A stretch of 64,000 nucleotides of DNA, from the NCBI GenBank assembly GCA_039698055.1, contig JBDKTL010000048.1:1-64000 (forward strand), given 5' to 3'. How positions within the stretch are numbered: position 1 is the first letter of the stretch; each line of letters begins with the position of its first letter. Source of the DNA: Methanoregula sp. Lineage in GTDB: Archaea > Halobacteriota > Methanomicrobia > Methanomicrobiales > Methanospirillaceae. The notes under the pieces are model-generated. The model was given only the letters and a program-made list of their open reading frames with translations. It made no database searches and had not been told where the DNA came from. Of this stretch, positions 693 to 42,288 are shown in pieces. Both the position numbers and the translations under genes were made by a program.

Positions 693-3600
693 CTACTCAT
701 CTTCTTTGAGGGCCAGGCTCACATCTTTGCGTACGTACGGCTCGATCATGACATCGACCGCTGTTGCCTGGCTTTTATTTTGAACCACTTTTACCGTATA
801 AGTTCCGGCCTGCATGTACTGGAAAGTGAACGGGGTTTTCTGGCCAGTATTTTTGTTGTTGATGTAAATTTTCCCCCCGGAGGGATCGCTGGTCACATTG
901 ATCATCCCGTAGAGATACGGTTGCATTACGAATCGGCGAACCAGATCCTTATTATTCATCCATATCGTGCTTGCCATGGGAATATATCCTGGCTTTGAAA
1001 TTGAAAGGATATGGTGACCATCGGAAACATTGGGTATTGTATAAGGCGTAGAATATCCCGTGGAATAACCATCAAGATAAATATCCGCACCGGGGGGATC
1101 GGATCCCACCCAGAGGTTCTGGAGGGTATAGGTACGTGGCACTATCTGTATCTCATCCAGATTCGTTGAAAATACAATCATTTGCGAAAGGTAGGTATCA
1201 TTCTGTTTTATTGTGATAAAATTGTCTGAATTGGACGACTGTAAATTCACCTTGACAGGGATGCGATATTTCTGGGTCTGGCCATTTACAGTAAAATCAG
1301 AACCCCAATAGGCAGTTGAATTAATAACAGGATCCAACAGGTACGGGTTTTCACCCACGGAAAATAATACCGGTGTGATGACCCCGTTATCAACCCACAC
1401 ATCTTTGGTATCGATCGGGTACGCGACGGTTACTTTTGCATTTCCTGTCAAAATGGATCCTTTCTTCATCACTTTTACCGTATGTTTGCCTTTCTGGAGC
1501 CCGTAGATTACGCTTGGGGTGAAACGGCTGGTTTTCTTTCCGTCGATATAAATCACGGCATCATCCGGAAAAGATTCGACGTATATCCCCCCATAGTTCT
1601 CCTGATCCAGGAGCGTAGCCTGGCCTTCGTTGACTTTTTCCCGTAAAATCAGATTGGACCCTGCGCTGGACATATCGAATTTCAGAGTCTCGTTAACCGT
1701 GACAAAAACCCGCTCGTCTGCGGACGCAAATCCCGATTGTTCAACGGATATGGTATGGTTCCCACCCTGCAACGGTTCAATTGTTGCCGGTGTTGTTTTT
1801 CCGGTATACTGGTAATCGACCGAGATCAACGCACCCGGGGGGTTGGAGAGCACGTGTACCGCATAGGTATGTTGCGAAGGATCAATGCTCTCGACAACTG
1901 GCCCGGATACCGGAAGGGACGAGACGAATTCCGCAGGATCCGGGGAGACCGTGACATTTGTGTCGGTCGTATTCACCGGTTCTTCTGAAAGAGTGGAACT
2001 CTCGTCATGTAAACTCTGCAGGTCTTTTGTTATGTAAAAAACGAAGTTCCGGTTTTCCATATAGTCTCCTTTTTTCTTGACAATGTAACTTCCTATGGTC
2101 GCATTGTTGTTTGTAGGGCGAACTGAACCGGTTACATCCAGAGTCGCGATGCTGATATCCGACGAACCTGAGGTCAATGCATCTCTCCACGGCTGGCCGT
2201 TGAACGTGATCTGGTTGTCATCATCCGCTGTTCCCGAAGCAGCCGTACTCACGACGATGAGTTTCCCGACCTTAAGTTCGGACGTGTTGATCTTCCCGGG
2301 GAACGTCATGCGCGTCGTTGCATTTACGGAATCCACCTGGAAATCCGGAGTTGCATAGATCATATCCGATCCCTCGCCAATCCAGTACTCTGTCGGTTGG
2401 CCCTGCGGATCTTCGTACGCTGCAACCATCATAATCCCGTACACGGCAAATTCATCCTTGTTCATCCCGGTATTTTTGATGGTGAATATCTGCGTTCCAT
2501 TCCAAATCATGTCCGGATTAACAGAATAGCAGAGGGTCTCGGCGGGATAATCGTATATTCCGGATCCCTTGCGATCGAGGTATCGCTTGTCTCCTTTGAG
2601 GGTATCGCCATTATAACTCACCTGGATTGAGGCAGGTTTCCCTTTCAGGTCCCCGGCATTATGGCTCCATGTGGTATACACGTACAGCCGCGCATCCTGT
2701 ACGGTTGCATTCTGCGGGAGGTTCACCGAAACGGAATACGACTTGCTGGTGTCTTTTTCCATGAGACCCGAGTAATCGCTGTCATTTGCGATGATGAGTC
2801 CGCCCACAATCGATTCATGGCGGTATAACGCCAGAGACCTGCCGCCGTACCCATTGGAATCGGATGTGCTGGTTTGAACGGCGGTTGCATCGCCGCTCGA
2901 AGAATTCGTGAGTGCAAGCGAAACCGATGCGGTATCGTCTTTTCCTAACGTAACACCAGTACTCATGTCAGCAAACCCGGATTTTTTCAGGGTAACGATG
3001 TGGTCGCCGATCATAATGTCGTCAAGGGTCGCATCGGTCTGGATTGTCTGGTTTATATCGTCAAGGAACACCCACGCGCCTTTCGGATCAGAACTCACGG
3101 CAATCGACCCGTTTATCTGTTTCAGGTCGAAGTGCACGGTGGCATTCCCGCTCTCGGGGATCGTAACGGTTTCTTCGTCCGGTTCGCGGAAACTCTGGTT
3201 GTTAGCGAGGTTGACCTGAACCGTGTGTTCACCGGCCGTGATCCCGAAGATCGTCACGTTGGTCTGCATTCGTGTTTCCTCATCATCGATACTGATGTCG
3301 GCACCCGGAGGATTGGATGTGACAAGAAGTGATCCTGTCGGATTTTGCGACACCGTAACAGAGAGCAGGGCCAGCGGGATTTTAAAATATACGCCACCCG
3401 TCTCACCAAACTCAGATGCTGCCCCGTTTCCCTCTTTGTACTCAAGGGTGCTGTCATCGCCCGGCGTGATCGAATCTATCACATCGGTCCAGGAGTCTGA
3501 ACCAAAATACGCGCCCCCGGGACTCCCCGATAATTGCTCTTCGCTGTTAAACGTATAGATGCCATTATTACTGGCCATGTACAGCACGGATAACTTCGCA

Positions 3601-4379
3601 TCTCGCTCCAGAGGCTCATCGCCCGTATCGTCAGGAATCTTTGATGTGCCAAATGATGTCTCGCCAACGTACCCGTTGTCTTTCTGCGTATTCATCGCAT
3701 CGTGACCCTGGTTCACCCAGTAATACACCTTGTTGGCACTTCCATCGTTATACGCCACGACCAATGCGATAAATTTGATACGACCGTCAAACGAGGAACT
3801 GACGTGTTCCGTATTCACGTTGACACCGACAGAATCCGAGGTGATCTTATCCTTGACATCGTACCACATAAGATAATCGCTCGTCACCCGGTTCATATGA
3901 TCGTTTATTATGACCGGGCCGCTTCCTCCGTCCCCGGGAAAAGTGTACGGGACGTTAAGACTCTCATCGCCGAGGTTTGTCTCGTACGTCCCGTCACCGT
4001 TTCTGTCAAACGTTACGTGGGCGATCCCGTTGTAGTTATTCTGCATATGGCCACAATAAACGCCAACATATACCCGGGCCCATTCTATCGTGGTATATTT
4101 CGGCAGGGCAAATGATTTCTGCGCGGACCTGGCAAATCCCTGGTAGGCGTCAAACCAGAGTCCCCCGGATACCACCCCGTTTTGCTCCGTTCTAAGCGGA
4201 ATCCCCCCATAGTAAGGATTGGCACTTGCGATTGAAACCAGGAATGCTATTCCAATAATCAGGACAAGGTGGATCGGCCGGAAACCCCGGACGCGTTTCG
4301 ATCCCGGTTGTGCGGTACTCTCACGCTTTCTCGACATGGAGAAATGATGGGGGGCTGGATAGATGGAGGATGAGTACAT
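693..4379 (-). CDS. Secreted DUF3344 (two domains) + six PEGA-repeat surface protein, 1228 aa
   Basis: N-terminal hydrophobic signal ending ASA. DUF3344-type motifs (YYGGIPL, WARVYVGVYCGHMQ, NRVTSDY, FDGRIK, YWVNQGHD) plus a second variant (ARLYVYTTW, YLDRKGSG). Six 'G-x-x-x-V-x-S-x-P-x-G-A-x-I-x-x-D' PEGA repeats. True start may be a downstream Met (MSRKRES). Confidence 0.85.
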   Translation of the reverse strand: MYSSSIYPAPHHFSMSRKRESTAQPGSKRVRGFRPIHLVLIIGIAFLVSIASANPYYGGIPLRTEQNGVVSGGLWFDAYQGFARSAQKSFALPKYTTIEWARVYVGVYCGHMQNNYNGIAHVTFDRNGDGTYETNLGDESLNVPYTFPGDGGSGPVIINDHMNRVTSDYLMWYDVKDKITSDSVGVNVNTEHVSSSFDGRIKFIALVVAYNDGSANKVYYWVNQGHDAMNTQKDNGYVGETSFGTSKIPDDTGDEPLERDAKLSVLYMASNNGIYTFNSEEQLSGSPGGAYFGSDSWTDVIDSITPGDDSTLEYKEGNGAASEFGETGGVYFKIPLALLSVTVSQNPTGSLLVTSNPPGADISIDDEETRMQTNVTIFGITAGEHTVQVNLANNQSFREPDEETVTIPESGNATVHFDLKQINGSIAVSSDPKGAWVFLDDINQTIQTDATLDDIMIGDHIVTLKKSGFADMSTGVTLGKDDTASVSLALTNSSSGDATAVQTSTSDSNGYGGRSLALYRHESIVGGLIIANDSDYSGLMEKDTSKSYSVSVNLPQNATVQDARLYVYTTWSHNAGDLKGKPASIQVSYNGDTLKGDKRYLDRKGSGIYDYPAETLCYSVNPDMIWNGTQIFTIKNTGMNKDEFAVYGIMMVAAYEDPQGQPTEYWIGEGSDMIYATPDFQVDSVNATTRMTFPGKINTSELKVGKLIVVSTAASGTADDDNQITFNGQPWRDALTSGSSDISIATLDVTGSVRPTNNNATIGSYIVKKKGDYMENRNFVFYITKDLQSLHDESSTLSEEPVNTTDTNVTVSPDPAEFVSSLPVSGPVVESIDPSQHTYAVHVLSNPPGALISVDYQYTGKTTPATIEPLQGGNHTISVEQSGFASADERVFVTVNETLKFDMSSAGSNLILREKVNEGQATLLDQENYGGIYVESFPDDAVIYIDGKKTSRFTPSVIYGLQKGKHTVKVMKKGSILTGNAKVTVAYPIDTKDVWVDNGVITPVLFSVGENPYLLDPVINSTAYWGSDFTVNGQTQKYRIPVKVNLQSSNSDNFITIKQNDTYLSQMIVFSTNLDEIQIVPRTYTLQNLWVGSDPPGADIYLDGYSTGYSTPYTIPNVSDGHHILSISKPGYIPMASTIWMNNKDLVRRFVMQPYLYGMINVTSDPSGGKIYINNKNTGQKTPFTFQYMQAGTYTVKVVQNKSQATAVDVMIEPYVRKDVSLALKEDE

Positions 4380-4556
4380 ACTCTTGTGTATTTTAAAATA
4401 TGATTATTAAACACTATTTAATTATTCATGATATTTTTTGTTACGATATAGTTAATTAATGTAAAAATTGCAGAAATCCGACGAAACGGAAAATATGCGC
4501 TCCAGACAACCGGAAAATGAGATTTAAACTCAATTTAACAGGATTTGCAGGATTCA

Positions 4557-5711
4557 TTATTCCTCAAAGCCGGCACTCACCATTAACGGGTACATATACG
4601 CGGTCGTATTGGTACCGGTAACGAAGCGCTGCGCGTATTCGTCAAGCACTGCATGTGGGTTTACCTCGCTGAATTGTTCCGGGTGGAGTGCCCGGGACAG
4701 GTACAGCAGCCCGATCACGGCGCGGGGCCCGTACACGATATCGTTCGACATCACGTACACGCGCCCGTTCTGTACCGCGCTCACGTTCCTGATGCCGTCC
4801 CGTGCCTGGATTTTTGCCAGGGCATCGGGGAATGTCAGGTTGCTCTGCGTGGCTGCAACCACTTTTACGATAACATCGGGGTTTTCCGCATAGACCCACT
4901 CGGCATTTACCTTGGGGGAGGACGCCGGCAGCAGGCCTGCAATATTGCGGCCGCCTGCCATGGAGAGAAGAGTATCCGCACCGGTTCCACCTGTTAGGGT
5001 GGTGTAATCAGAATAGGACTCGAAGTACACCCGGGGCCGGGAATTTCCAGATATATTCCCGGTGCGCGATTCTGCGAGGGTCTCGTACTTCCGGAGGAAC
5101 TCAATGTAATCTTCTGCGCCTTGTTCATGGCCGGTGATATTCCCGAGTTTTCGCGTATCGGAAGCAAGCGTGTCGATCTTATAACAATCGATGGGCAGGA
5201 TCGTGATGTTCGATGCAGTGATTTTATCGATATTTTTGGGCAGGTAACTCGCATAACTGACGACTGCATCCGGGTGCAGCGAGAGGATTTTCTCGACATC
5301 GGGCGCCTGCCAGGAACCGATACTGTCGACACCCGCAAACTCCGGACCAAGCACCGGGTGAGTCTTTACCGTTTCGGAAACGCCGACAATTTCGTCTTTT
5401 GCCCCGATTGCAATAAGAAGCTCCGCTGCGTTTGAATTGGTGACAATGATGCGCCGGACAGGGATCGTTAGGTTTGGTGTGGGTGCAGCGGAGGGAAGAA
5501 CCGGGGTGGATACCGTAGCGGACGGGGCCGGTATGACCTCAACGTGGGAAGTATCCCCCGATGCAGGGGAGGATACGCATCCGGCCGCTGCAACGGCACC
5601 AACAACCAGGCACACGAGGACGAGGAGGCGTTCTGCACGGGATGTAACCAACGTCAGGTTCCCTGAATTTTGCGTACTGTTTTGTTTTGTCATCGTATCA
5701 TTCCGTTTCAT
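4557..5711 (-). CDS. ABC transporter substrate-binding lipoprotein, BtuF/FepB/TroA-like (cobalamin/heme/siderophore class)
   Basis: Lipobox-like AAGC. Motifs RRIIVTNSNAAE, PDVEKILSLHPDAV, PRVYFE, AGGRNI, AVQNGRVY, GPR. Confidence 0.88.
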   Translation of the reverse strand: MKRNDTMTKQNSTQNSGNLTLVTSRAERLLVLVCLVVGAVAAAGCVSSPASGDTSHVEVIPAPSATVSTPVLPSAAPTPNLTIPVRRIIVTNSNAAELLIAIGAKDEIVGVSETVKTHPVLGPEFAGVDSIGSWQAPDVEKILSLHPDAVVSYASYLPKNIDKITASNITILPIDCYKIDTLASDTRKLGNITGHEQGAEDYIEFLRKYETLAESRTGNISGNSRPRVYFESYSDYTTLTGGTGADTLLSMAGGRNIAGLLPASSPKVNAEWVYAENPDVIVKVVAATQSNLTFPDALAKIQARDGIRNVSAVQNGRVYVMSNDIVYGPRAVIGLLYLSRALHPEQFSEVNPHAVLDEYAQRFVTGTNTTAYMYPLMVSAGFEE

Positions 5712-5804: not shown

Positions 5805-7019
5805 TCACGAATGCTGTATCGCTTCGACCGGGTTGAGCCGTGCGGCTTTAATCGCCGGGTAGATTCCGGAGACCAGCGAGAGAAACACCGCAACAAAAAA
5901 TCCCAGCAGCAGGATCTGCGGTGTGACAAGCGTAAGATCGTACCGTGCAAAGCCCGAGAACAGGTCTCCCATCTGGGCGATCAGGTACGCCTTTCCGATA
6001 GTATTGATCCCCCACGAAAAGATAATTCCCAGAAGATCCCCGAGCAATCCCCCGATCACCCCGATATACAGGCACTCGATCAGGATGAGGATGACCACGT
6101 CCCCCTGGGAAGCCCCGACGGCCATGCTCACCCCGATCTCGCGGGTTCGTTCGTATACCGACATGACCATCGTATTGACGATCATGAGCGCACCCACGAT
6201 AAGCGAGATCGCGGCGAAGATGGAAAGGAAGAGTATGACGAGATCCATGAGCCGGTTGACCTGTTCGATCTGGCGGAACGCCCCGTCTGCCGTGAGGCCC
6301 AGGGACTGGATATCCTTTACAACGGCAAACACGTTTTCGGGGTCGTCGACTCGGACATACACGGTGCTGTACGGCATCGACTCATTGGCAATCGTTTTTA
6401 CCGACCCGATGTCCATAATCGCGATACTGTCCAGCAGATCCCCGCGTTCCCGAAGCGTCCCGACCGACTGGAGAGCCACTTTACGATCACGGGGGGCGCC
6501 GTTCGGGTCGTAGTCGCGTATGACGACCGTGAAGAGATCTCCCGATCGTATGCCCTCGTATTTTCGCAGTTTTTCCGAGATGTCGTACCCGAGGACCACC
6601 TGGTTGGACGACGGGACAAAGGAGCCCCCGTACGTGTACGAGGGTTTAAAGATGGCCGAGAAGTCATCTCCGCTGATCCCGGTAACGCCGAGGTACGTCT
6701 GCTGGAGCGTGGAAAACGATAACTCGTAGACCGGGGCCGCTGCCCGGACGTGGGTCAGGTTTCGTATCAGCGCTACTTTTGAGTCCGTGACAGGAATGAC
6801 CGTTCCATCATGGACCGTCCCGGTCACTTCGATAAGCGTGAGATCCGACTGCTGCCTGATGCTTTCAATCGCCTGGTACCGTATCCCTTCGCCAAAGGAG
6901 ATGATACCGACTACTGCCGCGATGCCGATTGCGATCCCGAATGCGGTAAGGAGAACCCGCATCCGTTTCTTCTGGAGCTGCCGGGCGGAAAGTTTCGCGT
7001 AATCCACCAGTTTTACCAT
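5805..7019 (-). CDS. MacB/FtsX-family ABC permease
   Basis: R-x-x-LTAFGIAIGIAAVV, large extracellular loop, IVNTMVMSVYERTREIG, GIYPAIKAARLNPVEAI. Confidence 0.92.
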   Translation of the reverse strand: MVKLVDYAKLSARQLQKKRMRVLLTAFGIAIGIAAVVGIISFGEGIRYQAIESIRQQSDLTLIEVTGTVHDGTVIPVTDSKVALIRNLTHVRAAAPVYELSFSTLQQTYLGVTGISGDDFSAIFKPSYTYGGSFVPSSNQVVLGYDISEKLRKYEGIRSGDLFTVVIRDYDPNGAPRDRKVALQSVGTLRERGDLLDSIAIMDIGSVKTIANESMPYSTVYVRVDDPENVFAVVKDIQSLGLTADGAFRQIEQVNRLMDLVILFLSIFAAISLIVGALMIVNTMVMSVYERTREIGVSMAVGASQGDVVILILIECLYIGVIGGLLGDLLGIIFSWGINTIGKAYLIAQMGDLFSGFARYDLTLVTPQILLLGFFVAVFLSLVSGIYPAIKAARLNPVEAIQHS

Positions 7020-7684
7020 GCCTCGGTCACCTTCCCGTCGACAAGCTGGAACGAGCGATCCGCGTACGCGCCGAAATCCCGTTCATGGGTGACGACAAAA
7101 AACGTGGTTTTCTGCTCCCTGTTGATGGAACGCATCAGCCCGAAGATCTCGTCGCTCGTTTTTTGATCCAGGTTGCCGGTCGGTTCGTCTGCAAAGATGA
7201 TCGGCGGGTCGTTGACGAGCGCCCGGGCGATGGCCACACGCTGCTGCTCGCCCCCGCTCATCTGGGAGGGATGGTGGTTCCTGCGATTTTGGAGGCCTAC
7301 ACATTCGAGAAGTTCCCCGGCGCGGCGTGCCCGGGTTTCCGGGTCGTGGTAATTGAAAAGCATGGGGTACTCCACGTTCTCCTGTGCGGTCAGGTAGGGC
7401 AGGAGGTTGAACTGCTGGAACATGAACCCGATTTTTGTCCTCCGCAGGTCCACGAGTTGGGACCCGTCACGGTAATCCACGGGTATCCCGTCGAGCGTGA
7501 GGTTTCCCGAAGTCGGGCTGTCAAGGCACCCGAGGATATGGAGCAGGGTACTTTTTCCCGATCCGCTCCTCCCGATCAGGGTTATGAATTCTCCTTTTTC
7601 TATGCAAAAACTCGCATCTTTCAGGGCAGGTACGGTTTTTGAATACGTTTTTGCAAGTTTGTCTGCGATAATGATGGGTGGCAT
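7013..7684 (-). CDS. ABC ATP-binding protein, LolD/MacB-type
   Basis: [42 protein letters not shown]. Overlaps the permease start. Confidence 0.95.
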
Positions 7685-7693
7685 GACTGGCTC

Positions 7694-26290: not shown

Positions 26291-26300
26291 AAACAGACCC

Positions 26301-27479: not shown

Positions 27480-27533
27480 GGAGAACTATTTTTTTATCAG
27501 GTTCGTAAGAAATGCAGGGACTTTTTTTAGTTA

Positions 27534-29483: not shown

Positions 29484-29585
29484 CGTGTGGCTCCGGTAAG
29501 TGATGAATGGTTCGGGAAATTGTACAGACAAACGGTAAAATTTCATTGTTGCTGATATTTCAATTTATTATTTTGTTAGCAGTTA

Positions 29586-29622
29586 GTATTACCTTTTTTC
29601 ATTTGATATAATCCAGTAATAC
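29586..29622. promoter_or_regulatory. Perfect inverted repeat GTATTAC-N23-GTAATAC in the divergent chlD/cobN promoter (candidate NikR-type operator)
   Basis: Seen directly. The half-site resembles NikR half-sites (GTATGA/GTATTA), but the spacer is longer than canonical. Confidence 0.5.
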
Positions 29623-29721
29623 AATTACAAATATTTTTAACAATTGACACAGCACATTTCAAGGAGTACCACAGGAACGGTCCTGTTCCGGATACAGTAT
29701 TTTCAGTATAGGAATAACCAG

Positions 29722-32700
29722 ATGATGATTACCTCGGTCATGTGGGGGTCGTATGCCCCGGTACTGAAACGCGCAGCGATAGCAGCCGGTGTTAAATGTA
29801 CCATTTACCCTACGCGAGTACTGGAGGACCAACCGGAAAAAATCGAAGAAGCGGTTGCATCTATGCGGGCATCGGACATGATTCTCGTCTACCATACGTC
29901 CGACATGTTCTGGGAACAGATGGACCGGGAACTTGCTGTCATACGGCAGACCGTACCGGTGATCTCTCTTGGCCCGGACCCCTCGTTCTGGCTGCAGTCA
30001 ACGGTCAGTCCGGTCATTGTGACAACCTGCCACCGGTATATCACCAATAACGGCGATGAAAATTTCAAAAACCTTCTTCTCTTCCTTAAAAAAGAGATCT
30101 TCGGAGAAGACATTCCCGTTGCTCCCCCCATCGATGTGCCATGGGAAGGACTCTACCATCCCGATGCTCCCTCATCATTTTGCCGGGTAGACGACTTTCT
30201 TGCGTGGTATACAAAGAAGATTCCCGGCGCCCCGTGGATCGGTATCGTCTTCTCAAGGACATCGTGGGCTGCCAGCAACGTGGCGCTTGAGGATATGCTC
30301 ATCCACAGCCTTGAAGCAGAAGGGCTGAACGTAATTACGGTCTTCACCTACGCAATCCAGGACGATGCACTGGGGGCCCGGGGTATGGGGCAGGTGGTGA
30401 CCGATTACCTGATCCGGGATGGCGTCCCGATCGTTGACGCATTAATCAAACTCATACCATTTCTCTTTGGATCTACGCGTGACGGGAAGAACAGTAAGAT
30501 TGCCGCAGTTCAGGGGGTTGACCTGCTCAGGAGACTGGACATTCCGGTCTTTTCCCCGGTTATCAGCATGTACATGAATCTCGAACAGTGGCAGGCATCA
30601 GAGGGACTCTCCATGGATGTCGGGTGGGCTGTGGCCATGCCGGAGTTTGAAGGGGTTATCGAACCGGTCTTCATTGGTACCAGCAGCAGCGAACCCAATG
30701 GTGAAAAGACACGGGAGGCCGTTCCCGACCGGTGCAAAAAAGTCGCAGCCCGGGTGAGAAAATGGATTTCACTTGCCAAAAAACCGGTTGGCGAACGAAA
30801 AGTCGCATTCGTGCTCAACAATAATCCCTGTGCCGGCACTGAGGCCAACGTTGGCGGCGGTTCAAATCTCGACACGCTTGAAAGCGTCGCACGGATCCTT
30901 CAACGCATGGCAGACGCAGGCTACCTCGTCACACCTCCAGCGTCAGGCAAGGATCTCGTTGAAATTATCATGAGAAAAAAAGCGATTTCTGAATTCCGGT
31001 GGACAACCGTACAGGATATCATCGCAAATGGCGGCACGCTTGCACTCATGGACGAGGAAACGTATATGCCATATTTTTCTTCTCTTCCAGCATCCGTGCA
31101 AAAAAGCGTAACGGATACGTGGGGGGATCCCCCGGGCAAGGGGATGGTTCTTGACGGGAAAATGCTTATCACGGGTGTCTCGTTTGGTAATGCGACAGTA
31201 CATGTCCAGCCAAAACGCGGGTGCTATGGTTCGCGGTGCGATGGCGAGGTCTGCAAAATTCTCCATGACCCGAAATGCCCCCCGCCCCACCAGTACCTGG
31301 CGACGTACTACTGGCTCGAACACATCCTCAAAGCCGATGTCATTATTCATGTCGGCACGCATGGCAACCTCGAATTTTTGCCGGGCAAGGGAACCGGGCT
31401 ATCGGGAGAGTGTTTCCCGGATGTAGCTGTCGGCACCATTCCCTTCCTGTATATTTATAATTCTGACAACCCGGCCGAAGGGACTATTGCAAAACGGCGC
31501 AGTTATGCAACACTTGTCGATCATATGCAGACCGTGCTCACCGGCAGCGGATTGTATGAAGAACTTGAAGAGATTGATAACCTTCTTACCCAGTACGAGA
31601 CAACAAAAAACGATCCTGCCCGCGCCCATGCTCTCCAGCACCTGCTGAACGATGCCATCATTCGCGCGAATCTGGATAAGGACATGCATCTCTCTCACGA
31701 TACTCCACTTACCGAGATGGCAGCAAAAGCCCACGAAACGCTCTCGAAGATCCGCAATACCCGGATCCAGTCGGGGATGCACATTTTTGGTGAGATCCCC
31801 CATGGTGATCGACGGGTTGACTTTATCAGTTCCATTATAAGGTTCGACAACGGCGAATTGTCCCCGCGCCGCATCGTGGCACAGATTATGGGATTTGACC
31901 TGCCGGACCTTCTCGCAAGCCAGGACCGGTATTCAGAAGAGTACGGCATGTCGCATGGTGCTATCCTTGAGCAGGTTGATTGGGAATTGAACCATTTCAT
32001 CAGAACGGTACTGGAGGGATCGGCAATGCCCGTTGCCCTGATCTTCGGGAAACGGATAACAGAAGAGCAGGCGCAGATGCTCAATACGATCCGGGCACGG
32101 ATTCTTGATATCAACCAGAGAATTGAAGATTCACGCGAGATCGAATCTCTCCTGCACGGGATGGAGGGGAAATATATCCCGGCCGGGCCATCGGGCCAGA
32201 TCTCCCGGGGGCACGAGGAAGTACTGCCGACCGGGCGGAATTTCTATTCTCTTGATCCGTACCGTGTCCCCACCGGTGCCGCATGGCGCGTGGGGCAGCG
32301 TCTTGCCGACGCACTCATCGAAAAGCATTCCCGAGAAGAAGGGACCGTTCCGGAGAACGTCGCATTTTACTGGATGGCTGGGGACATCATGACATCGGAC
32401 GGCGAGATGTTTGCCGAGATGCTCTGGCTGCTTGGAGTGCGGCCGGTCTGGCAAAAAAACGGCCAGGTGCGATCGTTTGAAATAATCCCCCTCCATAAAC
32501 TTGGCCACCCCCGTATCGACATTACTGTGCGCACGACCGGGATACTGCGGGACAATTTCTCCAACTGCTATGAGCTGCTCGATGATGCAGTCCAGGCAGT
32601 TGCCGGTCTGAACGAACCTCCCGACAGGAATTTTGTCCGCCGGCATACACAGAAAAGCATGGCAGAGGAAGGGGCAGTATTCCGTGATGCAACACTGCGC

Positions 32701-33531
32701 ATCTTCTCGTCGCGCCCCGGCTCCTATGCAAGCGGGGTGAACCTTGCCGTACTTGCGAGTGCATGGAAAACAGAAGGGGATCTTGCTGATATTTTTGTGG
32801 CATACAACGGCTACGCATACGGCAGGGATATCCATGGTAAAGTCGCCCACGAACAGTTCGCCGCCAACCTTTCGACCGTATCGGTCACGTTCAACAAGGT
32901 CCAGTCTGATGAACACGACCTGCTGGGCTGCTGCTGCTATTTCGGCACCCACGGGGGTTTCACAGCTGCGGCCCGGCACTATTCCGGTAACGAGGTTAAG
33001 CCCTATTACGGGGATACCCGGGAACCTGAACATGTGGAAGTGCGCGACCTGTCCGATGAGATCCGGCGCGTGGTCCGGACAAAACTCCTCAACCCGAAAT
33101 GGATCGAGGGGATGAAGGTGCACGGGTATAAGGGTGCATCCGACATCATGAAACGCGTGACCCGGGTATATGGCTGGTCAGCATCAACCCAGGAAGTGGA
33201 CAACTGGATATTTGATGATATTGCGACAACGTTTGTCAATAATAAAGAGATGCGGGGATTTTTTGAAAAGAACAACCCTCATGCACTCGAAGAGATCACC
33301 CGACGTCTCCTCGAAGCAAACCAGCGCAGTCTCTGGGACGCAGATCCCGTTGTTCTCGAAGACCTCAAAAAGAATTACCTGGAGATCGAATCCTGGATGG
33401 AAGACCAGGTAGGCGGTGGCGATTTTCAGGGCGGGAATGTAGATGTATTCACGCAGGAGGATATTACCGGCTGGAGAGCCACCATGAAGGAGAGTATGGC
33501 AAAAGTTCATGCAAAGTACCGGAAAGAGTGA
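29722..33531 (+). CDS. cobN: CobN/ChlH-family chelatase large subunit
   Basis: MPEFEGVIEP, QPKRG, PPHQYLATY, HVGTHGNLEFLPGK, LPTGRNFYS, PRIDITV, LLNPKWIEGM..HGY. Start placed at the ATG at 29722. Confidence 0.93.
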   Translation: MMITSVMWGSYAPVLKRAAIAAGVKCTIYPTRVLEDQPEKIEEAVASMRASDMILVYHTSDMFWEQMDRELAVIRQTVPVISLGPDPSFWLQSTVSPVIVTTCHRYITNNGDENFKNLLLFLKKEIFGEDIPVAPPIDVPWEGLYHPDAPSSFCRVDDFLAWYTKKIPGAPWIGIVFSRTSWAASNVALEDMLIHSLEAEGLNVITVFTYAIQDDALGARGMGQVVTDYLIRDGVPIVDALIKLIPFLFGSTRDGKNSKIAAVQGVDLLRRLDIPVFSPVISMYMNLEQWQASEGLSMDVGWAVAMPEFEGVIEPVFIGTSSSEPNGEKTREAVPDRCKKVAARVRKWISLAKKPVGERKVAFVLNNNPCAGTEANVGGGSNLDTLESVARILQRMADAGYLVTPPASGKDLVEIIMRKKAISEFRWTTVQDIIANGGTLALMDEETYMPYFSSLPASVQKSVTDTWGDPPGKGMVLDGKMLITGVSFGNATVHVQPKRGCYGSRCDGEVCKILHDPKCPPPHQYLATYYWLEHILKADVIIHVGTHGNLEFLPGKGTGLSGECFPDVAVGTIPFLYIYNSDNPAEGTIAKRRSYATLVDHMQTVLTGSGLYEELEEIDNLLTQYETTKNDPARAHALQHLLNDAIIRANLDKDMHLSHDTPLTEMAAKAHETLSKIRNTRIQSGMHIFGEIPHGDRRVDFISSIIRFDNGELSPRRIVAQIMGFDLPDLLASQDRYSEEYGMSHGAILEQVDWELNHFIRTVLEGSAMPVALIFGKRITEEQAQMLNTIRARILDINQRIEDSREIESLLHGMEGKYIPAGPSGQISRGHEEVLPTGRNFYSLDPYRVPTGAAWRVGQRLADALIEKHSREEGTVPENVAFYWMAGDIMTSDGEMFAEMLWLLGVRPVWQKNGQVRSFEIIPLHKLGHPRIDITVRTTGILRDNFSNCYELLDDAVQAVAGLNEPPDRNFVRRHTQKSMAEEGAVFRDATLRIFSSRPGSYASGVNLAVLASAWKTEGDLADIFVAYNGYAYGRDIHGKVAHEQFAANLSTVSVTFNKVQSDEHDLLGCCCYFGTHGGFTAAARHYSGNEVKPYYGDTREPEHVEVRDLSDEIRRVVRTKLLNPKWIEGMKVHGYKGASDIMKRVTRVYGWSASTQEVDNWIFDDIATTFVNNKEMRGFFEKNNPHALEEITRRLLEANQRSLWDADPVVLEDLKKNYLEIESWMEDQVGGGDFQGGNVDVFTQEDITGWRATMKESMAKVHAKYRKE

Positions 33532-33564
33532 TATGAAAGCAGATTTTTTTCACGGGAGCCTGCG

Positions 33565-34521
33565 ATGAACGCGATAGAAACCCATAATCTCACAAAATAT
33601 TACGGTTCGCTCTGTGCGGTTGACAATCTCTCGCTGTGTGTGAACAACGAGATCTTCGCGTTGCTCGGCCCCAATGGTTCTGGCAAGACAACAACCGTAC
33701 TGATGCTCACCACGCTGCTGCACCCGACCAAAGGGAGCGCAACAGTCTGCGGTCACGATATCCTTTTGGAAGGAAAAAACGTACGGCGACAACTCAGTTA
33801 TGTCCCGCAGGAAATGGCTGTCGATATCAAGCTGACGGGCAGGGAGAATGTCCTGCTTTTTGCCCACCTTTACGGCATACCAAACCCGAAAGATAAAACA
33901 GACGAGGTCCTTGCAGTCATGGAACTCTCGGATCGGGCCGACGACCTGATTAAAACATATTCCGGGGGCATGCGCCGGCGGCTCGAACTCGCCCAGGCAC
34001 TGGTGCACGAACCGGCCGTCCTCTTCCTTGATGAACCAACGATAGGTCTTGATGTCGCAGCCCGCAGGAAGATATGGGAACATATCAGGGCACTAAAAAA
34101 AACGGGCATGACCATTTTTGTCACAACGCACTACATGGATGAGGCCGACCAGTACTGTGACCGGGTAGGTATTATCAGTAAAGGCCGAATCGTCGCACTA
34201 GGTCAGCCCACCTCCTTAAAATCCCAGCTCATGAAAGATGTGATCACCGCAAAAATCTCCGGTATCTTTGTCCCGCCGGATATCGAAGGGCTTCAACTTC
34301 TCGGTGTAAAAGACGACGAGGTCTCATTTTCTGCAGAAAATGGCAGAGAGGCTCTTCCGGTTATTGCACAGGTTCTGACCGGTTCAGGCATGAACGTCCA
34401 TTCGCTTTCACTCAGGGAACCAACCCTCGATGACGTGTTCCTCCAGGCAGTAGGACGACAGGAAGAGCCCCGGCATTTCAACGACCAGCAGTTCAGGACC
34501 ATGCTGAGGAGGAGGAAATGA
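33565..34521 (+). CDS. ABC-2 exporter ATPase (DrrA-like, with C-terminal DUF4162-like extension)
   Basis: GPNGSGKTT, YSGGMRRRLE, DEPTIGLD, TTHYMDEA, PTLDDVF. Confidence 0.92.
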   Translation: MNAIETHNLTKYYGSLCAVDNLSLCVNNEIFALLGPNGSGKTTTVLMLTTLLHPTKGSATVCGHDILLEGKNVRRQLSYVPQEMAVDIKLTGRENVLLFAHLYGIPNPKDKTDEVLAVMELSDRADDLIKTYSGGMRRRLELAQALVHEPAVLFLDEPTIGLDVAARRKIWEHIRALKKTGMTIFVTTHYMDEADQYCDRVGIISKGRIVALGQPTSLKSQLMKDVITAKISGIFVPPDIEGLQLLGVKDDEVSFSAENGREALPVIAQVLTGSGMNVHSLSLREPTLDDVFLQAVGRQEEPRHFNDQQFRTMLRRRK

Positions 34522-35243
34522 AAGGTATCTGGTATTACATGGACCGGGACATGACCAAATGGCTCCGTGGTAAAATTGCAGTTATCACGCTCCTTGTCAT
34601 GCCGGCAGCGTGGTTGATCTTCGTTGGCCTTGCATTGCCGGTCACCTTCACGGGTAATTATCTCGATTTCATCACACCGGGGATCCTTGTCATGACGATG
34701 CTTGCGTCCTCGATGCAGGGAGGGGCGCTCCTGATGTTCGATAAGATCCTGGGGTTCTTAAACAAATTCCTTGCACTCCCGACTCCGCGCGAGAGTATAC
34801 TGTTTGGTAAAATCCTGTTCATCACCATACGCGGGGTCATCCAGTCGACCGTTATCCTTCTCGTGGCAATCCTGATCGGTGCAACCATCCTCTCACTGGC
34901 TCAGTACGCGACCATCTACCTGATCCTGATACTTTTTGGCATCCTCGTTTCCGGGCTGGCGACCACGCTCGCGCTCTATGTCGGCGACCATGACTCGTAT
35001 GCCGCTGTCAACACCATGATCTCCATGCCCCTGTTCTTTACTTCAAGCGCCCTGATGCCATACAGTGTGATGCCCCCGTGGCTGCGGGCAATTGCATCGG
35101 TCAATCCCCTGAGTTTTGCCATTGATGCGATCCGTTCGGTGAGTGTCGGCGGGATACCGTTTTTGCAGATCGCGATTCTCGTAGTGCTGGGCATCGCCGT
35201 AATCACGATTTGCATGCAGGTTTTCCGGAAAATGACAGTCTGA
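34518..35243 (+). CDS. ABC-2 exporter permease (DrrB-like)
   Basis: Six TM segments, YLDFITPG, P-x-W-L..NPLSFAIDAIR. ATGA overlap with the ATPase. Confidence 0.9.
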   Translation: MKGIWYYMDRDMTKWLRGKIAVITLLVMPAAWLIFVGLALPVTFTGNYLDFITPGILVMTMLASSMQGGALLMFDKILGFLNKFLALPTPRESILFGKILFITIRGVIQSTVILLVAILIGATILSLAQYATIYLILILFGILVSGLATTLALYVGDHDSYAAVNTMISMPLFFTSSALMPYSVMPPWLRAIASVNPLSFAIDAIRSVSVGGIPFLQIAILVVLGIAVITICMQVFRKMTV

Positions 35244-35268
35244 CCCGAAACTCTACAGAGGTATATTC

Positions 35269-36372
35269 ATGAAAATTTTCAAACAACCCTTAACCAGTAT
35301 CCTGGTTATGCTGGTGCTCATCATGGCAGCATGTGCTGGATGTGCCAGCACTCCCGGGAATGACAGCACAGGAACAACAGAGCCGGTGACACCGGCTTAT
35401 ATCGCAGACACAGGCCAACCTGTCCCATCGGCACCAGGTTCGGCCTGCACTCCGGTGACGATCACGCAGACCAATGGCATTCCGGTAACCCTGCCCTGCA
35501 TGCCTCATCGTATCATTGTCACCAACTCGGATGCGGCGGAGATGCTGATCGCGCTTGGGGCAGCGGACACAGTTGTTGGTATCACTGAAACAACAAAGAA
35601 CATCTCGTATGTCATGGACAAAATCCCAACGGCGCAAAGCATCGGGGACTGGCAGACACCCAATATCGAGTGGATGCTTTCCTTAAAACCCGATGCCGTG
35701 ATCTCGTACGCGAGCTCGAAGCCAAAAAACCTCGACCAGATCCTTGCAGCAAACATAACGGTCATCTACCTTGACTGCTACCGCCTCCCAAAACTTGCTC
35801 AGGACGCCCGTGCGGTCGGTGCGCTGACCGGCCATGAACAAAAAGCAGAAACATATGCGCAGATGATCGAGAATACAATGGCGCTTGTCAAAGGCGATGT
35901 CGCGGCCATCCCGCAGGACAATCTTCCCCGGGTCTATTTTGAAGGATACTCTGACTTCACTGCTGCGGGAACAGGATCGGGATCCGATGAACTGCTGACC
36001 ATGGCAGGGGGAAAGAATATTGTCGCGTCGCTCTCCACATCTTCATCGCCAAAGGTAAGCGCCGAGTGGGTTGTTTCCCAGAACCCTGCATATATCATGA
36101 AGGTGATTTCAGCAAAAGAGACAAGGCCATATCCCGAAATTGTGGAAACGCTGAAGAAGCGGACCGGCTGGAATACGATCTCTGCAATCAAACAGGACCG
36201 GATCTATCTCTTTGGCAGCGGCATCGAGTACGGCCCGAAAGCGTACATCGGACTTGCAGCAACAGCGAAAGTTCTACACCCGGATCTTTTTGTGGATCTG
36301 GACCCGGAGAAGATGCTGGACGCGTATGCAGGAGAATACGTTGCGGGAACAAACATGACGGCAATGATGTAA
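35269..36372 (+). CDS. ABC substrate-binding lipoprotein, paralog of 4557-5711
   Basis: CAGC lipobox, RIIVTNSDAAE, SIGDWQTP, PDAVISYAS, PRVYFE, AGGKNI. Confidence 0.88.
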   Translation: MKIFKQPLTSILVMLVLIMAACAGCASTPGNDSTGTTEPVTPAYIADTGQPVPSAPGSACTPVTITQTNGIPVTLPCMPHRIIVTNSDAAEMLIALGAADTVVGITETTKNISYVMDKIPTAQSIGDWQTPNIEWMLSLKPDAVISYASSKPKNLDQILAANITVIYLDCYRLPKLAQDARAVGALTGHEQKAETYAQMIENTMALVKGDVAAIPQDNLPRVYFEGYSDFTAAGTGSGSDELLTMAGGKNIVASLSTSSSPKVSAEWVVSQNPAYIMKVISAKETRPYPEIVETLKKRTGWNTISAIKQDRIYLFGSGIEYGPKAYIGLAATAKVLHPDLFVDLDPEKMLDAYAGEYVAGTNMTAMM

Positions 36373-36625
36373 TCGGAACCGGCGTCGTCGAGAAATGAAA
36401 ATATCCCAGCCATGGCAGGAAAGGGTGATGTACCCTGTTCTCCTCCAGGATTGGGACAACCCCGGTTGCTTAAAATGCAGCGACCCGGTATAAGCGGGAT
36501 CGTCATCTGCATTTTTTTATCGCTGGAAAAAACCTTGCCTGCGCATACAAGGTATGAATTTTAACCCCGTTTTTTAGGAAATGTTAAAAACAATCAGCAA
36601 TGATATTGTCATTACTGGTACTACT

Positions 36626-37048
36626 ATGGTCATGGATGACGATTTATCACGCATTGGAATCTCACTTCCAAAAAACCTGCTCGACCGTTTTGATGAAATA
36701 TTGAATTTCAGGGGTTACTCCTCGCGGTCTGAGGGCATCCGCGATGCAATCCGCACCTACATCACGTATTACAAGTGGATGGCAGATGTCAAGGGTGAGC
36801 GTGAGGGAGTCATCACCATGGTATACGATCACGACCAGCGCGGGCTCCTTACAACCATCACGGATATCCAGCACGAATTCCACGAGGTGATCAAGGCATC
36901 CCTCCATTCCCACGTGACCCATAACCGGTGCCTTGAAGTGATCCTCGTTCACGGGGACGGGGCCCAGCTCAAGACACTTGCCGAACGGCTCATGTCCCAG
37001 AAAGGGGTTGAGTCGGTCAAGCTCACCACAATCTCAATCGAAGAGTGA
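36626..37048 (+). CDS. nikR: Nickel-responsive regulator NikR
   Basis: RHH N-terminus RIGISLP..SRSEGIRDAIR, YDH, Ni ligands QHEF and HSH..C (SLHSHVTHNRCLEV). Start probably 36626 rather than 36581. Confidence 0.93.
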   Translation: MVMDDDLSRIGISLPKNLLDRFDEILNFRGYSSRSEGIRDAIRTYITYYKWMADVKGEREGVITMVYDHDQRGLLTTITDIQHEFHEVIKASLHSHVTHNRCLEVILVHGDGAQLKTLAERLMSQKGVESVKLTTISIEE

Positions 37049-42276: not shown

Positions 42277-42288
42277 ATCACCACCATC

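Follow-up and report, generated by a model that had tools for sequence, protein, structure and literature searches.

The window, a 64,000-nucleotide stretch of contig JBDKTL010000048.1 from Methanoregula sp., was searched with Pfam. All of the gene parts named in a first-pass annotation were present, each where it had been placed. Comparison of the sequence with relatives indicates that this region of a Methanoregula-like methanogen holds not one system but two accessory modules, each conserved on its own. Module A (0.7-23.6 kb) contains the DUF3344-MacB genes. Module B (23.9-37.0 kb) contains ChlI/D-FecCD-FecE, divergent from CobN-DrrA-ABC2-binding protein-NikR.

The core operon of module A has the order DUF3344 (600 aa), DUF3344 (344 aa), MacB ATPase, MacB permease. 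Its first gene, dC (8652-10454, minus strand), encodes a secreted DUF3344 and CARDB protein of 600 aa, and the orthologue heads dC-dB-MacA-MacP in related genomes. The second, dB (7694-8728, minus strand), is a 344-aa ORF with a single DUF3344 domain. Its predicted true start is likely near Met27/28, ahead of the signal peptide. The MacB-type ABC ATPase gene (7013-7684, minus strand; best NCBIfam matches LolD/MacB-like, all below cut-off) comes directly after dB, an arrangement conserved in related loci. Among 67 related loci that were grouped by name, 61 have a MacB subunit next to the 344-aa gene. The MacB-type permease (MacB_PCD and FtsX; 5805-7019, minus strand) had a mean column identity of 63% in alignment A3 of 20 orthologues. 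It is followed in most related genomes by dA (693-4379, minus strand), a surface protein of 1,228 aa with two DUF3344 and six PEGA domains. On the plus strand are dD, a DUF3344 protein of 530 aa (12210-13802), and a giant surface protein of 3,174 aa (14072-23596). Pfam domains of the latter are NosD/beta-helix, Big_2, three CARDB, four DUF3344 and nine PKD, and its translation ends in a C-terminal membrane anchor. Contigs from RNA libraries, identical in sequence, mapped onto this gene. The five proteins carry nine DUF3344 domains, which are all nine matches in the 2.26-Mb assembly. All five have visible hydrophobic N-terminal signal/anchor segments, in agreement with their earlier description as secreted. 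The DUF3344-MacB set is a cell-surface machine that occurs in methanogens and in methane-oxidising archaea.

The gene for SBP1 (4557-5711, minus strand) lies inside module A in both the window and a same-genus genome. SBP1 is a class III (Peripla_BP_2) binding protein with a lipoprotein-like N-terminus including a Cys, and it scored below every NCBIfam cut-off. Its paralogue SBP2 (Peripla_BP_2; 35269-36372, plus strand) is in module B and is 44% identical. SBP2 was only 25% identical to the CbiZ-linked BtuF farther down the window and lay about as far from solved siderophore-binding proteins as from those for heme and B12. Neither NCBIfam scores nor comparison with solved binding proteins allowed a substrate to be assigned to SBP1 or SBP2. 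The two share the only importer permease of this type in modules A and B, a FecCD/BtuC-type protein (26301-27479, minus strand; Pfam, E 4.8e-88), which shares 40% identity with the permease linked to CbiZ (45356-46303). The FecE/BtuD-like ATPase (25523-26290, minus strand) had heme, corrinoid and siderophore ATPases as its best NCBIfam matches, all below cut-off. The FecCD/FecE operon has no binding-protein gene of its own. The relatedness of the two binding proteins and the incomplete importer operon were both as first described. Downstream of the ATPase, and part of the same operon, is a zinc-ribbon ORF of 498 aa (23915-25411, minus strand; Pfam), which the first-pass annotation did not list. 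It had no tblastn match among 40 related loci mapped and is not conserved. On the other side of module B are a DrrA-type ABC ATPase (33565-34521, plus strand; TIGR01188, 329 bits, cut-off 312) and a DrrB-like ABC-2 membrane subunit (34518-35243, plus strand; TIGR01247, 113.9 bits, below the cut-off of 223), whose start overlaps the DrrA stop.

The CobN-family class I chelatase large subunit (29644-33531, plus strand) scored 1,816 bits against the NF004646 cut-off of 1,468 and was not divergent at family level, contrary to the first-pass annotation. Its true start is likely at 29722, the Met27 codon, and the database protein identical to it has 1,269 aa. The motor subunit is a fused ChlI/ChlD-type AAA+/VWA protein of 670 aa (27534-29546, minus strand; TIGR02442, 804 bits, cut-off 779). 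The catalytic His/Glu/Glu are kept in CobN, where the equivalents of ChlH H621, E625 and E660 occur as GTHGNLEF and NPAEGT. Residues 1095-1098 (32926-32937) form a Cys triad, GCCC. It was found in 21 of 21 CobN matches in loci L001-L108 and in all six further matches. A phylum sample of 43 loci included 30 GCCC, two NCCC, one DCCC and seven acidic (DSDD or DSSD) versions. An NCCC-type distant CobN was present in a closed genome with no McrA match, so the Cys triad is not tied to F430. CobN is single-copy in the assembly, and searches of this genome turned up a single class II chelatase. Pfam identified no other late (aerobic-type) cob genes in the cluster.

NikR (36581-37048, plus strand) has ribbon-helix-helix and NikR_C domains, passed the NF002169, NF003381 and NF002815 cut-offs and contains a visible HSH-x5-C stretch. 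It is single-copy in the assembly and is of the CobN-associated paralogue type. A same-genus genome has, next to CobN, a NikR that is 83% identical to it, and the corresponding protein in another genus is 82% identical. Of 101 genomes of the order, 98 had a NikR match. More than one match was present in only four, and in all four a NikR lay within about 10 kb of CobN. The same proximity (about 10 kb) was seen in 5 of 49 CobN-positive genomes, window included, and NikR adjoins CobN in one of the 67 related DUF3344 loci grouped by name. The divergent promoter region (29547-29643) contains a palindrome, GTATTAC-N23-GTAATAC, at 29586-29622. Its right arm was not conserved in the same-genus genome, and there was no genome-wide enrichment: relaxed forms of the motif did not exceed chance (five perfect sites, about six expected). 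The two other intergenic sites adjoin thermosome and Lsm/PUA genes. Operator searches of the promoter and genome found no NikR operator. The position of NikR beside CobN and published induction make the proposed nickel link plausible. That induction comes from a 2025 proteome study in Nature on Methanothermobacter marburgensis, linked here by name, in which CobN1, NikR1 and two transporters were abundant only under Ni limitation (PMC12350162).

Module B was also found at L115, in another genus with no DUF3344 match, as ChlID-FecCD-FecE divergent from CobN-DrrA-ABC2(-SBP2-NikR), and in another family (L112) at 64-84% identity. Other genomes have the alternative arrangement SBP-FecCD-FecE-CobN(-ChlID). 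DrrA follows CobN in six of six type-2 modules (the window, the G081 copy and four more). The importer/exporter-linked CobN has no biosynthetic gene beside it in related loci. Of the order's 45 genomes with DUF3344, at least 14, in five families, have CobN less than 15 kb from a DUF3344 array. Among 31 Methanomicrobiales loci that were sampled independently, the distance was less than 10 kb in 8. Outside the Methanomicrobiales, CobN was at none of 36 DUF3344 loci and FecCD at one. The co-occurrence claimed at first thus recurs elsewhere, but a single conserved system does not, as either unit, DUF3344-MacB or CobN/importer/exporter, can also be found by itself. Matches to CobN came from 49 of the order's 101 genomes. 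A small CbiX was present in 97 regardless of CobN (one copy in 91, two in six), and four closed genomes lack CobN and have a single CbiX. This is the distribution of an accessory gene rather than of a step that biosynthesis requires, in line with the first-pass view that a class I chelatase has no obvious biosynthetic role.

The AlphaFold2 model of dB was all-beta with a pLDDT of 93.6. The fold is a double beta-sandwich, to which jelly-roll, CBM and PNGase F-type domains are weakly similar. A nickel site would usually have His or Cys. In an alignment of 20 dB-type orthologues no His or Cys was invariant; the invariant residues were Asp, Asn, Glu, Trp and Tyr, a set also known from beta-sandwiches that bind calcium or sugars. 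The stalk domains PKD, CARDB, PEGA and Big_2 are of a kind typical for adhesins, and DUF3344 was classed as ambiguous in a survey of fibrillar adhesins. A surface-capture role is suggested by gene neighbourhood only, and the lack of an invariant His or Cys counts against the metal capture first proposed, which is somewhat doubtful.

The reading preferred here, held tentatively and as something short of probable, is that both modules form one nickel (possibly nickel/cobalt) starvation island for accessory Ni/Co acquisition and ATP-driven insertion. The lipoprotein-type SBP1 and SBP2 would pass a metal in chelated form to FecCD/FecE, the one type II ABC importer here. Once the metal is inside the cell, the class I chelatase (CobN and fused ChlI/D) would spend ATP to insert it into a tetrapyrrole. 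The substrate would most likely be sirohydrochlorin, from which both F430 and corrinoids are made, and the chelatase could serve, when the metal is scarce, as a high-affinity reserve for the small CbiX/CfbA, which needs no ATP. Insertion has about an even chance of being the reaction; removal is unlikely. The co-transcribed DrrA/ABC-2 pump may expel the carrier ligand once it is empty, or a product with the wrong metal. This is an ad hoc account of the conserved CobN-DrrA-ABC2 linkage, since a chelatase that serves biosynthesis has no need of an exporter. The dedicated NikR would keep module B off in nickel plenty. MacB transporters are mechanotransmission-type ABC systems, and secreted DUF3344 proteins might hold an extracellular substrate while MacB drives its release or hand-over to SBP1. 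In favour of this reading, the surroundings are metal-related: the window also contains a DtxR-FeoA fusion, two FeoB genes, CbiZ-BtuFCD and a P-type ATPase, and two CbiM genes lie 13-22 kb past its end. If read rightly, the island may be a route to scarce nickel or cobalt for methane-making cofactors, in a methanogen where a conserved cell-surface DUF3344 array and a nickel-linked importer/chelatase set sit side by side.

A serious alternative, also rather less than probable, is that the modules are unrelated neighbours in a variable island. DUF3344-MacB would then be a cell-envelope or adhesion system, with MacB assembling, releasing or remodelling glycan- or cell-binding DUF3344 and no part for metals, a view that leaves the reading of module B free. 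The occurrence of each module without the other, the adhesin-type stalks, the weak carbohydrate-binding/PNGase F resemblance, the conserved Trp, Tyr, Asp and Asn and the lack of an invariant His or Cys agree with this. So do the patchiness of DUF3344 in the genus (one of six other genomes) and an ANME-1 DUF3344-MacB locus among housekeeping genes. Against it, CobN and/or FecCD adjacency recurs in five families in differing arrangements, and SBP1 is embedded in module A. Genome counts in the order also favour association (29 with both, 16 DUF3344 only, 20 CobN only, 36 neither), with the proviso that relatives are not independent. Three other lineages place the operon by ECF-type Co/Ni parts, NikR or a cbi operon. 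A Methanosarcina locus with DUF3344-MacB holds CbiQ, a double ECF-type ATPase and NikR; in another ANME-1 locus DUF3344-MacB follows CbiM and the cbi corrinoid operon on the same strand; and Methanoperedens plasmids carry NikR, DUF3344 and CbiMNQO together (PMC9674854).

For module B, an ordinary late-type cobaltochelatase with a cobalt/corrinoid importer, and NikR and exporters present by chance or for general Ni/Co homeostasis, is improbable. CobN and ChlI/D do pass NCBIfam models named cobaltochelatase, one ANME-1 operon follows a cbi operon and CbiM, and no second class II chelatase was found in this genome. However, 52 of 101 genomes had no CobN match although 97 had the small CbiX, late cob genes are otherwise absent from the cluster, NikR paralogues track CobN, and the published induction was by Ni and not Co limitation. 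The window CobN shares the EHDLL...YF...HGG frame with solved cobaltochelatases, but at the position of ChlH H1174, an essential His in Mg-chelatase, it has Cys-Cys-Cys, and GCCC replaces the acidic DSDD of the solved CobNs throughout the subfamily. Import of a ready metallo-tetrapyrrole (F430, corrinoid, heme or Ni-porphyrin), metal removal or exchange by CobN and ChlI/D as by HmuS for heme, and expulsion of the ring by the ABC-2 pump is fairly unlikely. DUF3344 would capture the complex at the surface and MacB would perhaps also expel the ring; the MacB genes, however, are part of the DUF3344 operon, which is at odds with the HrtAB-like ligand disposal first suggested. In support of this model, large chelates, among them B12, heme and siderophores, enter cells through type II importers that work with class III binding proteins, and such carriers are the best matches of the importer and binding protein. 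Every CobN is linked to an importer and, in the type-2 modules, to an exporter, its distribution is accessory, and the thiolate triad could compete for a soft metal. Two CobN homologues linked to uptake, HmuS and BtuS, free iron from heme (PMC12583661; PMC10846266). On the other hand, the window already has a separate, canonical corrinoid salvage set, CbiZ and BtuFCD, at 41-46 kb, and we know of no precedent for enzymatic Ni removal from a tetrapyrrole. The HmuS hallmarks tested were a Met-rich insertion, terminal membrane anchors and the LSLDHxxEFMGG motif, and none was in the window CobN, which has at most five Met per 60 residues and hence no such insertion. HmuS acts without ATP and without a ChlI/D partner (PMC12583661). 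The window enzyme, in contrast, has intact catalytic residues and keeps a conserved ChlI/D motor above the family cut-off, and the HmuS-like dechelation first proposed is thus an analogy.

Pfam searches located every element listed in the first-pass annotation of the window where that annotation had placed it. Module A (0.7-23.6 kb) consists of DUF3344 and MacB genes around a core of dC (600 aa), dB (344 aa), MacB ATPase and MacB permease. In module B (23.9-37.0 kb) the genes ChlI/D-FecCD-FecE are divergent from CobN-DrrA-ABC2-SBP2-NikR. Five proteins with nine DUF3344 (PF11824) domains were predicted, accounting for all DUF3344 matches in the assembly (2.26 Mb, 49 contigs). They scored from 121.6 to 761.4 bits against a Pfam gathering cut-off of 27.2. 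The N-terminus of all five translations is a hydrophobic signal or anchor segment, and the protein of 3174 aa (14072-23596, + strand) also has a C-terminal membrane anchor and a basic tail. A candidate ORF of 120 aa (10581-10943, + strand), rich in Thr, Ser and Pro with a C-terminal hydrophobic segment and no Pfam match, sits in the 1.7-kb gap between divergent DUF3344 operons. CobN and NikR are present in one copy each in the assembly. The genome encodes McrA, and one class II chelatase, of the small CbiX type, was found in it. Among named database proteins, the closest come from Methanoregula.

Other metal genes surround the cluster. These are a DtxR-type repressor fused to FeoA with an adjoining FeoB (37955-40665), a second FeoB (57209-59464) and a P-type ATPase (60899-62812). 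Two CbiM genes are located on the same contig at 77244-77966 and 85919-86575, 13-22 kb past the end of the window. A canonical set for corrinoid salvage, distinct from the cluster analyzed here, lies on the minus strand at 41134-46303. Besides CbiZ it encodes an ABC ATPase, a FecCD permease with 40% identity to that of the cluster, a BtuF-type binding protein and a xylose-isomerase-like TIM-barrel protein. Two archaeal type IV pilin genes, a 275-aa ORF with no Pfam match, a T2SSE-type ATPase and a T2SSF-type membrane protein were predicted at 47003-53052. The arrangement resembles an assembly set for a pilus or an archaellum-like structure, next to the metal genes.

The region had been annotated as a single system. 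Related genomes instead show two modules, each conserved separately and each also found alone. Window proteins were aligned by tblastn to stretches from 21 hand-picked related genomes, 13 chosen for CobN near a DUF3344 array and eight because none was seen near the array. The order dC-dB-MacB ATPase-MacB permease recurs in these genomes, usually followed by one protein with two DUF3344 domains, and the MacB permease was present in 19 of the 21. At L046, from Methanoculleus palmolei DSM 4273, both modules are present, with dC-dB-MacAB divergent from CobN-FecE-FecCD-SBP. An independent sample, obtained by a pattern scan with the dB alignment and one genome per species, gave 68 loci. They were labelled as Methanomicrobiales, Methanocella, Methanosarcina and other Methanosarcinales, ANME-1, ANME-2 and Methanoperedens, and included three 'Halobacteria' MAGs and one Bathyarchaeia MAG. 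Many of the contigs were short. The loci were split into 31 from Methanomicrobiales and 36 others, with one of unclear label set apart. A MacB subunit was encoded beside dB at 30/31 and 31/36 loci, respectively, so the MacB pump belongs with DUF3344 both in and outside the order. With counts that vary with tblastn thresholds and flanks of 10-20 kb, and with related genomes and many loci on short contigs, FecCD was near dB at 13/31 Methanomicrobiales loci compared to 1/36 others and CobN at 8/31 compared to 0/36. Importer and chelatase are therefore frequent DUF3344 neighbors only within Methanomicrobiales. NikR was near dB at 0/31 and 1/36 loci. A DUF3344/CobN adjacency thus recurs within this order and was not seen at the 36 loci elsewhere.

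Module B was also found by itself. A genome of another genus with no DUF3344 match (L115) carries NikR-SBP2-ABC2-DrrA-CobN divergent from ChlID-FecCD-FecE. In another family (L112) CobN-DrrA-ABC2 adjoins FecE-FecCD-ChlID, and a third genome (L116) has CobN-DrrA-ABC2 with ChlID. Two types of module B were distinguished: the type of the window, CobN-DrrA-ABC2, with a CobN identity of 64-84%, and the type SBP-FecCD-FecE-CobN(-ChlID), with about 45%. The order was sampled with 101 genomes, which are mutually related and hence non-independent. DUF3344 matches occurred in 45 of them and CobN matches in 49, with three of the CobN cases resting on a 30-residue fragment alone. Tallied from the match lists, 29 genomes had both, 16 had DUF3344 only, 20 had CobN only and 36 had neither. 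Among the 150 of 260 DUF3344 matches listed, at least 14 genomes from five families had CobN and a DUF3344 domain no more than 15 kb apart on one contig, and the arrangement varied from family to family. Small CbiX was present in 97 of the 101 genomes, as one copy in 91 and two in six, and four closed genomes of the order had one CbiX and no CobN. As CbiX is near-universal with or without CobN, CobN is an accessory gene in this order.

The AlphaFold2 model of dB, built from 42 sequences, is almost all beta (pLDDT 93.6, pTM 0.91). No solved structure was matched by DUF3344 at the sequence level (best E 0.13). Foldseek with the dB model gave weak matches to double jelly-roll, carbohydrate-binding, PNGase F and PHM-type proteins, with TM-scores of at most 0.28. 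The ESM Atlas returned DUF3344 clusters, one unnamed bacterial cluster and nothing else, and phmmer against 1.84 billion cluster representatives returned 293 DUF3344 relatives at E ≤ 0.001. The invariant residues in 20 dB orthologues include Asp, Asn, Glu, Lys, Arg, Trp and Tyr, with no His or Cys. A predicted complex of the MacB periplasmic domain (residues 44-262) and the 344-aa dB scored 0.14 against a mark of 0.32, which speaks neither for nor against binding. In the literature found on DUF3344/PF11824, from outside subscription journals and supplements, no function was assigned and no MacB operon noted.

Metal genes also neighbor DUF3344 in other lineages. In Methanosarcina (L093:22-17098) an ECF-type module is interspersed among the DUF3344-MacB genes, and a DUF3344-CARDB protein and NikR come after them. 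The module comprises CbiQ, a double ABC ATPase of 626 aa and a membrane protein of 363 aa that has an extracellular domain and matches ABC_cobalt faintly (E 0.008, below cut-off). In ANME-1/Methanophagales (L092:1385-12903) a dC-dB-MacB ATPase-MacB permease operon is directly preceded, on the same strand, by genes for CbiM, a methyltransferase, two tetrapyrrole methylases, CbiG, a methylase-CbiC fusion and CbiD. Another ANME-1 DUF3344 locus has housekeeping-gene surroundings. According to the available text of PMC9674854, NikR, DUF3344 proteins and CbiMNQO are found together on Methanoperedens plasmids. From these neighborhoods it is possible, if somewhat doubtful, that DUF3344-MacB takes part in metal capture. 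The residue pattern and stalk domains of DUF3344 suit an adhesin or glycan binder equally well.

Four metatranscriptome runs (two samples, one study, as contigs) contain 8-17% of the sampled module B words. Identical pieces of RNA-library contigs on 17100-37099 cover the giant DUF3344 gene, FecE, DrrA/ABC-2, SBP2 and NikR. RNA libraries can contain DNA, contigs cannot rank genes, and uncovered parts such as 26438-27771 carry no meaning, so these contigs show that the sequences were in those libraries and say nothing on regulation. Contigs of two runs connect position 18873 with 20253, leaving out 1379 bases and having 20 other letters in between. The join falls within the DUF3344/PKD repeats of the giant gene and may be a strain variant one repeat unit shorter or an assembly collapse.

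The CobN of module B had been described as divergent. It is a regular member at family level, scoring 1816 bits with NCBIfam NF004646 (cut-off 1468), and its PF02514 match spans positions 1-1087 of the 1090 in the profile with 1251.6 bits. The fused ChlI/D motor encoded divergently adjacent to it scored 804 bits with TIGR02442 (cut-off 779). The stretches GTHGNLEF and NPAEGT align with H621, E625 and E660 of ChlH in an alignment with solved chains including 4zhj. The residue numbering of 4zhj has a chain offset of 20, fixed from the E660/E625 mutant entries (6yt0, 6ytj, 6ytn). The idea that CobN has His at the ChlH E660 position was dropped, as the alignment has Glu in all. H1174, E660 and H621 of ChlH are named as essential catalytic residues in the available text of a 2026 review (PMC13297055). 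At the H1174 region ChlH reads TDVSHYF, two solved CobNs (7c6o, 9uk9) read DSDDYF/YY and the window CobN reads LLGCCCYF. Its residues 1095-1098 (32926-32937) are GCCC, with the third Cys aligned to H1174.

GCCC was found in all 21 CobN matches of loci L001-L108 and all six of L109-L119. GCCC is found in 90 of the 120 closest database proteins, SCCC in three, and DCCC and SCCG in one each; the search pattern missed the other 25. A 65-residue segment was scanned against 301 genomes of the phylum, 95 of which matched, and 43 loci were fetched. The four residues were GCCC in 30 of these, NCCC in two, DSDD in two, DSSD in five, and DCCC, GCCG, ECCH and DDDC in one each. Judged from these alignments, the Gly-Cys-Cys-Cys motif defines a large archaeal CobN subfamily. 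Longer CobNs (about 1580-1700 aa, about 30% identity) elsewhere in the genomes examined for module B had no match to the Cys-triad segment. McrA was present in all three genomes tested from the high-identity CCC group. It had no match in two of two closed genomes of one family, one with an NCCC-type and the other with a DDDC-type CobN, and the Cys triad is therefore not confined to F430 makers. No mention of the triad was seen in the literature found, which was retrieved by other queries from outside subscription journals and supplements.

The window NikR has PF01402 (RHH) and PF08753 (NikR_C) domains and scored above cut-off with NF002169 (205.5 vs 111 bits), NF003381 (132 vs 105) and NF002815 (116 vs 83). 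A stretch HSHVTHNRC was read from the sequence alone; His-x-His-x5-Cys presumably represents the high-affinity Ni ligands of NikR (E. coli numbering). The window NikR shares 83% identity with the NikR next to CobN in a genome of the same genus and 82% with the corresponding NikR in another genus. NikR was found in 98 of the 101 genomes of the order, with more than one match only in G081, G011, G049 and G061 (5, 4, 2 and 2, respectively). In all four of these NikR lies within about 10 kb of CobN, as it does, with the window, in five of the 49 CobN-positive genomes. The pattern points to NikR paralogues that serve CobN modules specifically. The earlier claim of nickel control gains from these paralogues, but no NikR operator was recognized in the window.

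One perfect palindrome, GTATTAC-N23-GTAATAC (29586-29622), was found in the chlID/cobN promoter (29547-29643) among nine intergenic regions examined, and GTATTAC occurred 12 times against 4.05 expected. The palindrome is not kept in the sister genome of the same genus. The chlID/cobN promoters of five related modules were compared for an operator. A genome scan for GTATKA-N13-27-TMATAC gave five perfect sites against about six expected by our own estimate, and the two intergenic sites besides the palindrome are next to thermosome and Lsm/PUA genes. Being unconserved and unenriched, the palindrome was rejected as evidence of a NikR operator. The CobN promoters at L115:12009-12285 and L109:13010-13300 (reverse strands) have in common AGTATGAA.TTTCGTAA..T.TTTAA. 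One of the two reads GTATGA-N16-TAATAC, with no equivalent seen in the window's own promoter; we take this to be close to the E. coli NikR operator. In Methanothermobacter marburgensis CobN1, NikR1 and two transporters were high only under Ni limitation, which is left unexplained in the available text (PMC12350162, Nature 2025). The CobN-like chelatases of that species were earlier proposed as nickel chelatases in a genome paper (PMC3087415).

We infer for module B the import of a chelated metal under nickel control, with a tetrapyrrole as the substrate of its chelatase. The direction of the chelatase reaction can be read in two ways. Insertion of scarce Ni (or Co) has, in our assessment, an even chance. 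It is favored because every characterized class I large subunit working with an AAA+ motor that we know of is a metal inserter, because the catalytic residues are intact, and because chelatase genes commonly sit beside importers of their own metal. CobN and ChlH large subunits with an AAA+ motor are described as inserting metal in the available text of PMC12583661. Removal of the metal by the chelatase is unlikely. The first-pass annotation had put forward a complete scheme on that side, with a chelate imported, its metal taken out or swapped and the ligand exported. The conserved exporter suits this scheme better than it suits insertion, and we consider the scheme rather improbable.

A wider proposal was drawn up in which methane-metabolizing archaea have a dedicated, so far undescribed pathway for scavenging trace metals; that all of its steps hold jointly is quite improbable. 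A membrane MacB-type motor would mechanically work the secreted DUF3344 double-beta-sandwich proteins. These would strip nickel, or a nickel/cobalt macrocycle, from the environment and hand it to the class III binding proteins and the type II importer. The Cys-triad chelatase would then use ATP to load the metal into, or pull it from, a tetrapyrrole and would be the first class I enzyme specialized for nickel. A private NikR paralogue would control the pathway. Nickel supply limits F430, methyl-coenzyme M reductase and hydrogenases, and thereby methane production. If true, the pathway would set the extent of methanogenesis at scarce nickel. The use of archaeal CobN/HmuS homologues is explicitly called unclear in the available text of PMC12583661 (EMBO J 2025). 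The locus offers testable handles on this role, which two 2025 papers leave open. One is the conserved importer-chelatase-exporter-NikR unit. Another is the sharply defined Cys-triad active-site variant, which sets these CobNs apart from Mg- and Co-chelatases. The third is the conserved DUF3344-MacB operon, which would be the first functional context for the DUF3344 family.

The importer of module B resembles the type II importers BtuFCD, HmuTUV and FecBCDE in having a FecCD permease, a dedicated ATPase and class III binding proteins. Unlike these, it has two paralogous binding proteins for one permease. SBP1 (4557-5711, - strand) and SBP2 (35269-36372, + strand) share 44% identity and have Cys-containing lipoprotein-like N-termini. 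The importer parts belong to the wider FecCD and Peripla_BP_2 families in Pfam. All substrate-specific NCBIfam importer models scored far below cut-off, including the BtuFCD equivalogs (BtuC 237 vs 461, BtuF 57.6 and 68.8 vs 234, BtuD 135 vs 281). The matches of SBP2 to siderophore, heme, B12 and HI_1472-type proteins all have E values between 1e-17 and 1e-13, which does not narrow the substrate. The true CbiZ-linked BtuFCD sits elsewhere in the window (41-46 kb), apart from the module B importer, and its BtuF has only 25% identity to SBP2. The CeuE-FecDE nickel route of Helicobacter is another type II importer case. Of the exporter genes of module B, DrrA scored 329 (cut-off 312), DrrB scored 113.9 (cut-off 223) and PF01061 (ABC2_membrane) was matched.

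MacAB-TolC, LolCDE, FtsEX, HrtAB and PvdRT belong to the MacB family of mechanotransmission ABC transporters. The window's permease has MacB_PCD (PF12704) and a C-terminal FtsX domain (PF02687), with a separate PF00005 ATPase in the overlapping upstream gene, as in those systems. It differs from them in being archaeal, in its fixed place in an operon behind two secreted DUF3344 proteins and in having no adaptor or outer-membrane partner. The LolC/E, MacB and FtsX NCBIfam models scored below cut-off for these genes. No HrtAB model was among the NCBIfam matches listed, and the genomic context is the DUF3344 operon. NikR-regulated Nik and Cbi(MN)QO uptake systems are similar to module B in having an adjacent NikR gene, and CbiM genes are on the same contig. 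They differ in that the window uses another importer class, has DUF3344 proteins as extracytoplasmic partners and lacks a recognizable NikR operator.

Among class I chelatases, Mg-chelatase ChlH-ChlI-ChlD gives the best solved sequence match (4zhj, E 1e-167). The equivalents of H621, E625 and E660 are kept and the I/D motor is fused, whereas the position of the essential H1174 is Cys. A chlorophyll pathway is presumably absent from this McrA-bearing methanogen host. Cobaltochelatase CobN is matched by the full-length PF02514 domain, by the CobN and TIGR02442 scores above cut-off and by the combination of a soluble large subunit with an AAA+/VWA motor. The EHDLL...YF..HGG frame of the solved CobNs is also present. 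Unlike the CobN of the aerobic B12 route, the window CobN has GCCC in place of the acidic DSDD motif, which we assume to determine cobalt specificity. Aerobic-route CobNs work with a CobS/T or ChlI/D motor; here the neighbors are an importer, an ABC-2 exporter and NikR, with no cob biosynthesis genes. Unlike those of the aerobic route, the host follows the CbiX-type (early) route, and CobN had no match in half of its relatives.

The heme dechelatases HmuS/BtuS of the Bacteroidota hmu operon are the remaining comparison. HmuS 9d26 is a weaker sequence match (E 4e-109). Unlike HmuS as described in the available text of PMC12583661, the window CobN has no Met-rich insertion, with at most five Met per 60-residue window, and has an ATP motor partner where HmuS is ATP-independent. 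It has no membrane anchors, both termini being hydrophilic. The LSLDHxxEFMGG motif of HmuS is absent and the matching stretch is DEHDLLGCCCYFGTHGG. No HmuY/R/T/U/V-like neighbors, as in the six-gene hmu operon, were seen around CobN by Pfam in the window. The likeness to HmuS/BtuS is that a CobN-family protein is encoded beside uptake genes and that its proposed role is in metal acquisition and not in cofactor synthesis.
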